DNA of 9,864 nucleotides, from the IMG/VR virus record IMGVR_UViG_2663763339_000002, positions 1-9,864 of that record; one strand, 5' to 3'. This DNA is from a virus (taxonomy: Duplodnaviria > Heunggongvirae > Uroviricota > Caudoviricetes). Both the position numbers and the translations under genes were made by a program. How positions within the stretch are numbered: position 1 is the stretch's first letter; every line of letters starts with the position of its first letter. This document shows, in pieces, positions 6,597 through 9,864 of the stretch. The notes beneath the pieces are model-generated. The model ran no database searches. It was given only the letters and a program-made list of their open reading frames with translations, and was not told the origin of the DNA.

Positions 6597-6828
6597 AACC
6601 CCCCCCATTTTCACAATCAGTAATCAGGATGGCTTTAGCCTCATTCAGCGCCATATCAGCACTAAGTTGCATTACAGCCAGTGAGTGAGGAACGAAAGCC
6701 CCGGCATATTCTGTTTCAGTGGTGGCGTGCTTATGCGCTTTGTCTGCGATAACAGAAATATCAATCAGCGCATCCATCAGCGTTCTGATAGCTTCGGCGG
6801 CTGCGTCCGGACGGGTGTTATTGCACAT
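6589..6828 (-). CDS. Hypothetical protein, 79 aa
   Basis: ATG 6826-6828 preceded by strong RBS AGGAGG. Confidence 0.55.
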   Translation of the reverse strand: MCNNTRPDAAAEAIRTLMDALIDISVIADKAHKHATTETEYAGAFVPHSLAVMQLSADMALNEAKAILITDCENGGGYA

Positions 6829-7024
6829 GGCGTACCTCCTGACGAATACGGGCGGCGAATACCATCACGCAACCATCAGGAGATTGCTGGCGCGCTTCCT
6901 GTTCGCTGGTGGCCTCAATGGTAATCACGCGCGGTTGTGCCGTGCTCAGGGCGATAAAACGCCAGATGTATTTATTCAGGTTGTACGAGTCCCGCCCTTG
7001 CGGGTGTCTGGTATAATTTCTCAT
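6818..7024 (-). CDS. Hypothetical protein, 68 aa: the C-terminal part of the 354-aa track ORF; the rest of that ORF is judged spurious
   Basis: Internal ATG 7022-7024 preceded by GAGG; the downstream 68 aa have ordinary composition whereas the upstream part is Cys/Ser/Arg-rich and overlaps the plus-strand genes. Confidence 0.35.
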   Translation of the reverse strand: MRNYTRHPQGRDSYNLNKYIWRFIALSTAQPRVITIEATSEQEARQQSPDGCVMVFAARIRQEVRHVQ

Positions 7025-7104
7025 AGCTGCCTCGATACGCTTTCTATCGTTGGTAGTTAGACGCCCTGCATGTGTTGCGAGCACTGCGGGGCGTTGCTCT
7101 TTTA

Positions 7105-7156
7105 GGTGTATTTCACCTCTGCTTTTTAATTTACTCACTGGTGAAATACACTTCAA
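7105..7156. promoter_or_regulatory. Divergent control region: two inverted operator-like copies with a candidate minus-strand promoter
   Basis: GGTGTATTTCACC (7105-7117) and GGTGAAATACAC (7140-7151) are reverse complements and each is internally symmetric (GGTG-N5-CACC). Candidate minus-strand -35 TTGAAG (7151-7156) and -10 TAAATT (7128-7133) with a 17-bp spacer covering the second site. Confidence 0.45.
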
Positions 7157-7217
7157 GCCTTTTTTTATCATTTTTTTTGCGTATACTGACATACACCAAT
7201 TTTTAGGAGATCCAGAA

Positions 7218-7397
7218 ATGGCAACTGGTGCAAAGAACGCAAAATCACAAATGACAACTGTCAGAATCCCACATGAAGTAATGGATGATATTGAGCAACT
7301 TAAAGAACCTGGCGAAAGTACCGCTGGTTTTTTAGTTACTGCCGCAAAAGGCGAGATCAAACGCCGCCAGCGTCGCAAGGCCAAAGAGCAGGAGTAA
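7218..7397 (+). CDS. Small ribbon-helix-helix-like DNA-binding protein, 59 aa (candidate element regulator)
   Basis: ATG 7218-7220 preceded by AGGAGA; TTVRIPHEVMDDIEQL fits a beta-strand-then-helix pattern; basic tail KRRQRRKAKEQE. Fold is inferred, not searched. Confidence 0.6.
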   Translation: MATGAKNAKSQMTTVRIPHEVMDDIEQLKEPGESTAGFLVTAAKGEIKRRQRRKAKEQE

Positions 7398-7454
7398 CCA
7401 TCACCAGCGCCGTGGTGTGAGTAACTACGGCGCATTGCTATGCAGGACAACACA

Positions 7455-7628
7455 ATGACCGATAAAGAATTGACCAAAACATTATCACCGACACGGAAAA
7501 GACGGCGCAGAAAGATAGAGCATGAATCAGAAAGATTCGCGCCATGTGCTTTTGCCCTTGAGCAATTCCTTAAAGAGTACAGGGAAAAGCGCTCATTGCA
7601 GGTATGGCAACGAACTGAACCAGACTGA
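7455..7628 (+). CDS. Small basic hypothetical protein, 57 aa
   Basis: ATG 7455-7457 with AGGA 7 nt upstream (alternative ATG at 7440); RKRRRRK stretch; followed by a plus-strand terminator. Confidence 0.4.
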   Translation: MTDKELTKTLSPTRKRRRRKIEHESERFAPCAFALEQFLKEYREKRSLQVWQRTEPD

Positions 7629-7707
7629 TTGCATTGCCCACCAGCCGCAAATGTGGCATTGTTGGCGATGCTCATGCGTTGGGGATAACGCGAAATTTGT
7701 GTCGCAG

Positions 7708-7736
7708 GGCCACCGTGACTGGTGGCCTTTTCTTTG
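7708..7736 (+). terminator. Intrinsic terminator ending the plus-strand two-gene unit
   Basis: Perfect 7-bp stem GGCCACC / GGTGGCC with a 6-nt loop, followed by TTTTCTTTG. Confidence 0.6.
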
Positions 7737-7773
7737 CCTGTTATCCGGCAATAGTGGCGCTTCTTCACACAGT

Positions 7774-7856
7774 TGATATAATTCCCCTGCACTGATCCAA
7801 TTTTTTCGCAGCAGGTTAATTGTTCGCAAGGGCGCTCCGGTAACGGGGCGCTTTTT
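7774..7856 (+). ncRNA. Candidate small RNA unit: extended -10 promoter plus intrinsic terminator with no ORF between
   Basis: TGaTATAAT at 7774-7782; hairpin GCGCTCC-GGTAAC-GGGGCGC (7832-7851) followed by TTTTT; no ATG or GTG between. Convergent with the 3' end of alpA. Confidence 0.25.
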
Positions 7857-7886
7857 GTTATGTGCATCGCGTTACGCCTCACACCA

Positions 7887-8093
7887 TTACGCAGCCGTTC
7901 CGCGCGCTTCTTCCTCGCGCTCTTTCAGCCAGGCCAGCACTTCATCTTCATACCAGCCAACACGACGCAGACCGATTTTGAAGCCTTTCGGGAATTTTCC
8001 GGCGTTGATCATGTCCTGTAGCGAACTGTCTGCCTTGATGCGCAGAATATTTTTTACTTCCTGACGGGTAAGTATTTTTCTGATTGTTTCCAC
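7887..8093 (-). CDS. alpA: AlpA-family phage transcriptional regulator, 68 aa
   Basis: GTG start at 8091-8093 (no in-frame ATG covers the HTH). FPKGFKIGLRRVGWYEDEVLAWL matches the AlpA signature recalled from E. coli CP4-57 AlpA (VGWIEAEIDEWL). Confidence 0.8.
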   Translation of the reverse strand: METIRKILTRQEVKNILRIKADSSLQDMINAGKFPKGFKIGLRRVGWYEDEVLAWLKEREEEARGTAA

Positions 8094-8162
8094 TATGTTT
8101 TACCTCGTTAATCCGGCGTATTCCGGTGATAAATACGGTAAAACAGGGCAGGGCGGGAAAAA

Positions 8163-8194
8163 CAGTACCCACCGTTTTAAAACGGTACTCACTG
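8163..8194. promoter_or_regulatory. Palindromic operator-like site upstream of alpA
   Basis: Perfect 16-bp palindrome ACCGTTTTAAAACGGT (8171-8186) inside a larger imperfect dyad CAGTAC...GTACTCACTG. Confidence 0.4.
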
Positions 8195-8228
8195 TTTTTT
8201 ATCTCATTGATTACGCTTTTCTTTCTGC

Positions 8229-8258
8229 AAAAAAATAGCGACCGCAAGGGGCCGCTAT
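8229..8258 (-). terminator. Intrinsic terminator after the 80-aa ORF
   Basis: Minus-strand RNA forms an AUAGCGGCC...GGUCGCUAU hairpin followed by U7 (plus-strand A7 at 8229-8235), 5 nt after the stop at 8264-8266. Confidence 0.5.
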
Positions 8259-8263
8259 TGTGA

Positions 8264-8506
8264 TTACCGTTTCCACTTCTTAGGCCGCCCACCGCATTTA
8301 AGGCTGGTGGGTCTCAGCACCTTGTCGATGCTTTCAGCCAGGTTTTTCGATGCGCCACGTGAGCGCAAAAAACTGACTACCTCGTGTTTTGTGGGGGCTG
8401 TTGATTTGTCTTCCGGATCGTATGTTGACCAGAATTCACGATTTGCCATTAACGCCAGTTGCAGCCCTTCGCCGCAAGCAGGGGATACCTTTTCATTGAA
8501 AAACAC
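8264..8506 (-). CDS. Hypothetical protein, 80 aa, between integrase and alpA; basic C-terminus GRPKKWKR
   Basis: GTG start at 8504-8506 with AAGGAG 8 nt upstream (alternative ATG at 8447-8449 has no RBS); own terminator downstream. Confidence 0.5.
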   Translation of the reverse strand: MFFNEKVSPACGEGLQLALMANREFWSTYDPEDKSTAPTKHEVVSFLRSRGASKNLAESIDKVLRPTSLKCGGRPKKWKR

Positions 8507-8622: not shown

Positions 8623-9864
8623 TTACACGGCACGGATACCCCTTTTACCACTGGCTATGGTCACTCCGGTAGCTGCGGCCTCTACAAATTCCCCCCACCA
8701 GCGCATAAGCACCACGCGCTTTTCCAGGTAGTTACTTCGGTTATATGCTCGCCTTACCTCGTTTGTGTCCACGTGTGCGAGTGCGGCCTCGATTACGTCC
8801 GGCTCGAATCCTTCCTCGTTCGCTGCTGTACTGAATATGGCGCGTAATCCGTGAGACACCAGCACACCAGCGTAACCCATCCGGCGCAATGCGGCGTTAG
8901 CGGTCTGGCTGCTCATTGGCAGCATCGGGTTTTTAAGGCTGGGAAAAACGTGTTCCCTGTGTGCGCTGATTGGCTTCATGGTTTCCAGTACAGCCATAGC
9001 CTGACCGCAAAGGGGGATCACGTGGTCACGGCGCATCTTCATGCGTCCGGCTGGAATCGTCCATGTTTCGGCATCGAGATCTATTTCTTCCCAGCGTGCG
9101 GCGGCTGCTTCGGCTGGGCGTGCTACGGTCAGCAGTTGCCACTCAATCAGCAATCTGGTTTGCCGTTCTATGCTGGCGACCGATAAATCGTGCATTAGCT
9201 GCGGTAGCTGTTCCGGTCGGATGGTTGGCATGTGCTTTTTGGTGGGTGAGGGGAATGCCTTGCGGACGTTCGCGGCGGTGTTGATGTCAATCAGCCCACT
9301 GTTGGCAGCAAAATCCATCACTTCATTGATGCGTTGTAAAACGCGTTTCAGGGTTTCCAGGTTGCCGCGTGCTTTAATGGGTGTGAGTATCTCAACAAAG
9401 CGGCGAGCTGTGAGGGTATCTATTGGCGTGTTTCCGATGTACGGGAATACGTATTTTTCCAGGGATCGCCAGATATCCTTAATCGTGTTGTAAGCCAGAT
9501 TCTGGCCTTTTTTCATCTCGTACCAGTCCGAGGCAACTTTTTCGAACGTGTTGCCCTTTTTCCGACTCTCTGCTTCACGTTTCCGGCGTTCGTGGTCCTG
9601 TGGGTCAACTCCCTTCGCTATGAGTGACCTGTATTCATTCCGTCGTTCTCTGGCATCGGACAGGGAAACATCATTCAGCGATCCGAGGCTGATGATAGTC
9701 CGTTTTTTATCTGCCGGGCGGTAGTACGTAAAACGCCAGATTTTTGATCCGGAGGGTTTCACCAGAAGAAATAATCCTCCGCCATCCTGCAGGGTGTATT
9801 CCTTTTCCCCTGGTCGTGCGTTTTTGATCTCCGTAATAGTTAGTGGGGTGGTTTTTCGTGCCAT
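8623..9864 (-). CDS. int: Tyrosine site-specific integrase, P4 / CP4-57 IntA family, 413 aa
   Basis: N-terminus MARKTTPLTITEIKNARPGEKEYTLQDGGGLFLLVKPSGSKIWRFTYY is the typical arm-binding domain of P4-type integrases; catalytic-region motifs (TVARP, HGLRAIF, RAYNRSNY). ATG is the last 3 nt of the window. Confidence 0.9.
   Translation of the reverse strand: MARKTTPLTITEIKNARPGEKEYTLQDGGGLFLLVKPSGSKIWRFTYYRPADKKRTIISLGSLNDVSLSDARERRNEYRSLIAKGVDPQDHERRKREAESRKKGNTFEKVASDWYEMKKGQNLAYNTIKDIWRSLEKYVFPYIGNTPIDTLTARRFVEILTPIKARGNLETLKRVLQRINEVMDFAANSGLIDINTAANVRKAFPSPTKKHMPTIRPEQLPQLMHDLSVASIERQTRLLIEWQLLTVARPAEAAAARWEEIDLDAETWTIPAGRMKMRRDHVIPLCGQAMAVLETMKPISAHREHVFPSLKNPMLPMSSQTANAALRRMGYAGVLVSHGLRAIFSTAANEEGFEPDVIEAALAHVDTNEVRRAYNRSNYLEKRVVLMRWWGEFVEAAATGVTIASGKRGIRAV

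Follow-up and report, generated by a model that had tools for sequence, protein, structure and literature searches.

A conserved promoter–terminator unit downstream of alpA in an Escherichia coli phage-inducible chromosomal island is a candidate antisense small RNA gene

The stretch of DNA analysed here (the window, 9,864 nucleotides) matches the E. coli RM8082 chromosome at 100% identity, where the insertion adjoins tRNA-Pro and yejM. Gram-negative phage-inducible chromosomal islands (PICIs) were recognized by int together with alpA, a replication module, capsid or packaging genes, a length of about 10 kb and a position beside a tRNA or another conserved site, and the RM8082 annotation lists tRNA-Pro, int, alpA, an Icd-like gene, a RepA helicase, an SSB and a protease-capsid fusion. 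On the minus strand, the window carries int (8623–9863, from the annotation), a small ORF (8264–8449), the gene for the PICI activator AlpA (7887–8093; annotation, Pfam Phage_AlpA E = 4.5e-8), the Icd-like gene (6818–7024; NCBIfam), and genes for a RepA-type helicase, an SSB and a protease/capsid fusion, along with several small ORFs. EcCICFT073, the experimental prototype of these islands, has the same layout, with int, alpA, a convergent orf and ylcI, then an Icd-like gene and a primase. The element is a PICI with capsid genes, organized like EcCICFT073, and not a P4 relative in the strict sense; the P4-family label given to it in a first-pass annotation of the sequence is not upheld. In EcCICFT073, overexpression of AlpA alone is sufficient to trigger replication (PMC6092414).

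A strong minus-strand intrinsic terminator (8234–8259) separates int and the small ORF from alpA, so alpA must have its own promoter, which fits the autoregulation of AlpA in EcCICFT073 (PMC6092414). About 65–105 bp upstream of the alpA start codon lies a 42-bp near-palindrome (8158–8199) made of two abutting 21-nt arms that are 81% complementary, a likely regulator-binding site in the alpA promoter region. RefSeq marks the integrase as frameshifted; in the ORF list its 413-codon frame is open to the window end, so any real defect must sit at the edge of the window or outside it.

Facing alpA, the plus strand encodes ylcI (7218–7397; NCBIfam YlcI_YnfO_N, 64 bits against a cutoff of 30) and orf62 (7440–7628, from the annotation), which match PHROG families at 2e-20 and 1.5e-15. 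The two form an operon directed at alpA and ending at a terminator, T1 (7706–7735, plus strand, hairpin 7706–7729), found in the terminator scan. Other islands have a different hairpin sequence at the place of T1, followed by TTTGTTTT. An Rfam match to isrD (E = 8.5) was rejected, being merely the T1 hairpin. Codon periodicity could not tell which strand of ylcI is coding, since the two overlapping frames share their third codon positions. Between the Icd-like gene and ylcI, the leader contains a 17-nt inverted repeat (7101–7117 and 7140–7156; arms 88% complementary and separated by 22 nt) that resembles an operator or RNA hairpin.

The 258-nt gap between orf62 and alpA contains a promoter–terminator unit on the plus strand. 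Its extended -10 element, TGATATAAT (7774–7782, with TATAAT at 7777–7782), is a perfect consensus, and the pattern TGNTATAAT occurs twice in the window vs. 0.26 copies expected from shuffled sequences. The -35 position of the unit reads GTGGCG (3/6), a poor match that explains why a two-hexamer promoter scan missed this promoter; a good -35 is not required by an extended -10 promoter. The other perfect extended -10 in the window, TGGTATAAT (7009–7017, plus strand), lies inside the first codons of the Icd-like gene and faces ylcI. It could be the ylcI promoter, and its transcript would be antisense to the icd start. Beginning 46 nt after the -10 of the unit is a second intrinsic terminator, T2 (7828–7859, plus strand), in which 7828–7839 pair with 7844–7855 around a GNRA loop (7840–7843) and a T-run occupies 7852–7859. 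The T2 hairpin (7828–7855) has 12 pairs, 7 of them G-C, a GTAA loop and the tail TTTTTGTT; it ranks first among the 29 terminator-like sites in a scan of the window, and the distance from the -10 to the hairpin core is 49 nt.

Transcription from this promoter would start near 7789, judging from the position of the -10, and end at 7856–7859, for a predicted primary transcript of about 68–71 nt (7789–7859, plus strand). Between the -10 and the end of T2 (7783–7859) the plus strand contains no ATG or GTG, and its single TTG (7820) opens a 7-codon frame without a ribosome-binding site. The first-pass annotation had proposed an extended -10 at 7774–7782, a strong plus-strand terminator about 50 nt further on, an intervening stretch free of start codons, and a placement between the terminator of the plus-strand operon (here T1) and the 3′ end of alpA; each of these holds, and its estimate of the RNA size agrees with the geometry. 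The sequence thus has the generic attributes of a small RNA gene, with its own predicted promoter, a same-strand terminator at the distance usual for small RNAs and no translatable ORF. The predicted RNA (7789–7859) folds at -23.9 kcal/mol (z = -2.46); for the opposite strand the values are -13.7 kcal/mol and z = -0.20. Its 5′ part (7789–7806), which ends in a U-rich run, is the most variable stretch among homologues. A weak stem-loop, SL2 (7810–7824; 7810–7814 with 7820–7824, loop GUUAA), follows inside the conserved CGCAGCAGGTTAATTGTTCGCAA. Across homologues, 95% of the SL2 alignment cells are paired, with no double-sided change, and because it is lost in some variants SL2 is weakly supported as a structure.

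Of 5426 complete E. coli genomes, 306 (~6%) contain the stretch by BLAST, and in none of them is it annotated as RNA; if the RNA is real, these genomes share an unannotated RNA family. Among 170 related loci gathered from IMG/VR and genomes, the unit forms the right half of a conserved block of about 226 nt (7634–7859, plus strand) that is common to PICIs with different int/alpA modules, including EcCICFT073, which carries it at 93% identity with the same -10 and the same terminator. For CFT073 the predicted RNA maps to about 1,380,081–1,380,011 of NC_004431.1, on the minus strand. Most BLAST matches stop exactly at 7859, the last T of the T2 tail, past which different alpA modules or a Bro-N gene follow, island by island. 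The block as a whole folds at -86.1 kcal/mol on the plus strand (z = -3.05) and at -70.2 kcal/mol on the minus strand (z = -1.29). Its most variable bases are those just before (7747–7771) and just after (7783–7806) the -10, which itself reads TGATATAAT in 31 of 32 distinct units and TGATATAAC in the remaining one; the distance of 49 nt to the hairpin core is likewise kept in 31/32. Because the homologues are so closely related (roughly 85–100% identity), the constancy of these nine bases is suggestive but falls short of proof. In one natural variant the hexamer is TATAAC, a change expected to weaken the promoter.

The T2 hairpin is preserved through sequence change. One pair has changed on both sides, from C-G to A-U, and a second, entirely different set of arms, GGCGGCUCC...GGGGCCGC, maintains the hairpin in a shifted register. 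All 24 distinct T2 variants fold at -16 to -24 kcal/mol on the plus strand vs. -7 to -14 kcal/mol on the minus strand, and the G-U pairs are valid on the plus strand only. Each of the loop sequences seen (GUAA, GCAA and GGAA) is a GNRA tetraloop, and the T-run is invariant among the anchored variants. With the alignment register kept fixed, 92.6% of cells are paired and a double-sided change occurs in one pair, a modest covariation that is expected of such close relatives. Taken with the modularity described below, the comparative support for the unit goes well beyond chance, and the unit can be regarded as an unannotated, conserved candidate small RNA gene, of a kind of RNA that is already known.

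Among the gathered islands, the parts of the unit also occur separately. In one locus (L065), the unit (~7747–7859) is intact, with promoter, RNA body and terminator, beside an unrelated left flank. Five islands that we call type C (L067, L083, L142, L143 and L159) lack T1 and TGATATAAT and have instead a different promoter, TTGCCC-17-TATCAT (9/12), and a different 5′ hairpin joined to the shared middle hairpin and T2; their predicted RNA is about 82 nt long (z = -3.65). In types D and E, the segment ahead of T2 has the look of a genuine minus-strand coding sequence. TATAAT and TAAAAT boxes in types D and E were rejected as independent support for a promoter because they are located in this segment. 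A set of 80 islands was collected through the Icd-like protein, without reference to the block: the full unit is present in 43, T2 occurs without this promoter in 19, and T2 is missing from 18. The terminator by itself must therefore account for some of the conservation, and the unit is dispensable for this type of island; it is common and mobile, but optional.

These distributions bear on the main alternative, that T2 is a fail-safe second terminator guarding alpA and int from antisense transcription out of ylcI-orf62, with TGATATAAT silent or irrelevant. Tandem terminators are common, and in types C, D and E, which lack TGATATAAT, T2 is the sole terminator after the plus-strand genes, and T2 clearly doubles as an operon terminator; type B islands manage with a T1-like terminator alone after orf62. 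A terminator with an irrelevant -10 nonetheless leaves unexplained why a perfect extended -10 persists in 31 of 32 units amid varying flanks and at a fixed 49-nt spacing, why the unit of L065 moved together with its promoter into another left context, and why type C has a different promoter at a similar distance before the same terminator. We consider this alternative rather unlikely, and favour, tentatively, an RNA gene. The conserved 53 nt (7807–7859) could also be the shared junction of exchangeable modules, kept as a recombination linker.

If the RNA is made, it might act in trans, as an Hfq-type regulator or an ‘anti-sRNA’ directed at host or helper-phage RNAs. Its size of about 70 nt, variable 5′ part, conserved 3′ part, internal U-run and intrinsic terminator would suit this role, and the prophage small RNAs of enterohaemorrhagic E. 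coli (51–60 nt; AgvB and AsxR) are very short, with conserved 3′ and variable 5′ parts, and lie convergently downstream of a gene (PMC4104026). AgvB and AsxR differ in that they belong to lambdoid prophages, lie downstream of PR′ and act in trans on core small RNAs, whereas the RNA of the unit has no such predicted target. Against a trans role, RNAduplex predicted no targets within the window better than those of shuffled controls, a k-mer search of the window gave a single 11-mer on an unlikely strand, and no complementary stretch of at least 10 nt was present in a plausible window transcript other than at the cis site. The 5′ end, the usual seed, is moreover the least conserved part, and the RNA has no sequence relation to any Rfam family; searches of the window and of four related loci at permissive thresholds returned nothing relevant. 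With targets sought inside the window, trans action seems unlikely. Outside E. coli, BLAST of the block against GenBank phages gave no match, an exact 22-mer from the RNA was absent from 185,579 species representatives, and a protein-anchored scan of species representatives yielded three loci, none with the right-hand unit and its promoter. A literature search returned no small RNA near alpA, in PICIs or in CFT073, and no paper on the unit.

The strand opposite the unit is itself unusual. The unit lies inside a stop-free minus-strand frame of 354 codons (6818–7882), in phase with the Icd-like gene, whose first possible starts are GTG at 7882 and ATG at 7867, the latter preceded by GAGG. From icd to alpA this frame has 0 stops in 287 codons, vs. 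13 and 19 in the other minus-strand frames, and none of 20000 shuffles left a 287-codon frame open. In 73 distinct upstream regions, the in-phase frame is typically open for 220–412 codons, the other frames closing after 1–11, and about 9 of the 73 variants carry an early stop. The frame is also open in Escherichia ruysiae (279 codons), Klebsiella pneumoniae (297) and Tenebrionibacter (193); loci with the frame include L003 (2993–4405), L168, L169 and L170. For the K. pneumoniae locus, no DNA similarity to the block, ylcI or orf62 of the window was detected; the Tenebrionibacter and E. ruysiae loci share only ylcI with the window, together with the terminator core in E. ruysiae. RefSeq annotates 7399–7867 as an ‘icd-like’ pseudogene in RM8082 and, elsewhere, a 470-aa ‘Icd-like protein’ in one genome and a pseudogene (Bro-N) in others. 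Homologues of Icd-like are almost always gene-called as 67–118 aa forms and are uninformative on the long frame. The nesting of Icd-like in this frame resembles that of P4 kil, which lies in phase within eta downstream of an alpA homologue.

This frame raises the possibility that the block is conserved for a minus-strand protein, the N-terminal part of a long Icd-like or Bro-network protein, of which the promoter and hairpin would be by-products. The openness of the frame in most homologues and in three other genera or species, the 470-aa RefSeq protein, and the segment next to T2 in types D and E that looks truly coding are consistent with such a protein. On the other side, substitutions in the block fall on the three codon positions 39/33/32 and so have no codon periodicity, the 286 residues upstream of Icd-like match no Pfam, PHROG or NCBIfam family and the product is rich in Cys, Ser and Arg, and the compensatory changes of the T2 arms swap the peptide encoded opposite the hairpin for an unrelated one of equal length. 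The early stops noted above also speak against a protein. What seems to be preserved is the openness of the frame, not its product. We regard a protein explanation as improbable; an open frame for translation would be compatible with an RNA gene and no replacement for it. In six of the gathered loci (L121, L144, L115, L161, L140 and L168), the ~230-nt segment between ylcI/T1 and T2 reads as a plausible minus-strand protein domain (...EGADHRYYSTPEMQNILLQNAVGHAVRKAKNFAGGATDAILSGRQVLINLMSDFVLD) that shares its phase with the long frame and the peptide opposite T2.

The first-pass annotation had supported its small RNA reading with the immunity RNAs of P4-family elements. That reading stands as far as an ORF-less, independent plus-strand unit is concerned, which fits both the sequence and the comparison among islands, and falls short in the P4-family label and the precedent. 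P4 CI and P1 c4 arise by processing from the strand that carries the operon under their control. In P1, where the RNA acts on the leader of the antirepressor operon, translation of the icd frame decides whether transcription continues. Both RNAs are cut from the leader and pair with short repeats, whereas the unit has its own predicted promoter and terminator, and its structure and terminator lie opposite alpA, icd and the replication genes, so the precedent does not transfer directly. The P4-type small RNA silences by acting on the leader of the replication operon, where translation of the leader frame (eta/kil) decides whether transcription continues (PMC10111431, PMC4825925). Some ‘Bro zones’ of PICIs do contain C4/isrK-type RNAs (PMC10111431), and the island has an Icd-like gene as does the P1 c4-icd-ant operon, but a relative of P4 CI or P1/P7 c4 processed from a minus-strand alpA-to-replication transcript is very improbable and is already contradicted by our tests: the C4 (RF01695) and isrK models gave no match in the window up to E = 10 or, up to E = 1, in EcCICFT073, K. 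pneumoniae, E. ruysiae and L083, structure is present on the plus strand only, and no seqA/seqC-type repeats complementary to the RNA were found. Repeats that would connect the unit with the alpA promoter were also sought, and none turned up.

The class of mechanism that best fits, by analogy, is that of the cis-antisense RNA genes lambda OOP and P22 sar. OOP is a 77-nt RNA that has a constitutive promoter of its own and ends at an intrinsic terminator; it is transcribed against the early operon and is complementary to the distal part of the cII mRNA. The promoter of the sar RNA (~69 nt, P22 immI region) points into the operon that sar controls, and the RNA pairs with the translation start region of the next gene. 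Like OOP, the unit would specify a short RNA from its own promoter and terminator, opposed to the transcript of a regulator, and, like the region of the unit, the immI region encodes ribbon-helix-helix type regulators. OOP and the predicted RNA have no sequence similarity, and they differ in what they cover. OOP overlaps the 3′ end of the cII coding sequence and sar covers the ant ribosome-binding site, whereas the predicted RNA does not overlap the alpA coding sequence, ending 27 nt short of its stop codon, and covers the sequence after alpA; it overlaps neither the coding end nor the ribosome-binding site of the gene it would regulate. In many islands, a Bro-N gene or its remnant intervenes and the RNA is over 240 nt away from alpA. 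What it overlaps everywhere is the long stop-free minus-strand frame from alpA to Icd-like. In the window, it is complementary to codons 3–26 of that frame (counted from the ATG at 7867), in ETEC-2264 and CFT073 it lies well inside the frame, deeper than here, and in L003 it corresponds to about codons 82–135. Since the RNA meets the frame at different points in different islands, blocking translation initiation cannot be its general mode of action.

No minus-strand terminator was found after alpA in the window scan, so transcripts from the AlpA-activated promoter would run into the region of the unit on the other strand. This, together with reporter data from EcCICFT073 (PMC6092414), suggests that the alpA transcript may extend through 7859–7789, a stretch to which the predicted RNA is, by its position, perfectly complementary. 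Our leading reading, to which we give somewhat less than an even chance, is that the unit is a small, independently transcribed non-coding RNA gene that is cis-antisense to alpA read-through transcripts. The promoter element, terminator, conservation, modularity, strand asymmetry, lack of a plus-strand ORF and complementarity to the alpA-distal transcript can all be read from sequence and comparison; synthesis of the RNA, its start site and its effect are what we infer from them. In the proposed mechanism, a constitutive sigma-70 extended -10 promoter (7774–7782) would start transcription near 7789, and the one-directional T2 would end it at about 7856–7859, releasing an RNA of about 70 nt in which a variable 5′ part precedes a small conserved hairpin in the middle and the hairpin of the terminator. 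In this island, the RNA would pair with the first ~25 codons of the frame joining alpA to Icd-like and the replication genes, acting as an antisense brake in cis. Pairing, along with head-on transcription from the unit promoter and the ylcI operon, would block translation of the read-through RNA or trigger its cleavage, so that basal alpA transcription is kept from the replication genes, and the strong AlpA-driven transcription that follows helper-phage induction would overrun the brake.

The unit is directly downstream of alpA and, if the replication genes are reached by read-through, on the path of AlpA-driven transcription. It is thus a candidate brake keeping such E. coli islands silent at the control point of Gram-negative PICIs, and its presence in EcCICFT073 makes it directly testable there. 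A broader and more speculative proposal, which we think unlikely as a whole, is that E. coli PICIs are silenced by cis-antisense RNAs (this one and possibly another from the left half of the block) that gate the passage of ribosomes through a long leader frame, kept open with its sequence unconstrained, which couples alpA to Icd-like and the replication genes. Where translation fails, Rho would end read-through, and AlpA-driven transcription and translation would break through after helper induction. If true, this would amount to P4/P1-style immunity (RNA, leader translation and termination) rebuilt with an opposite-strand antisense gene, and the gating RNAs would fill the place of the missing ‘repressor’ in Gram-negative PICIs.

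The left half of the block (7634–7735) consists of a promoter-like pair, a hairpin (7675–7692) and T1, and it may, from this arrangement, be a second small transcription unit producing a ~65-nt RNA that ends at T1. The possible promoter (7634–7662, plus strand) comprises TTGCCC (7634–7639), a 17-nt spacer and CATTGT (7657–7662), the last a weak -10 in the window. Six different spacer/-10 combinations preserve the geometry TTGNCC-17-NATNNT; one of the six is from K. pneumoniae, with a T1-like terminator after the element.
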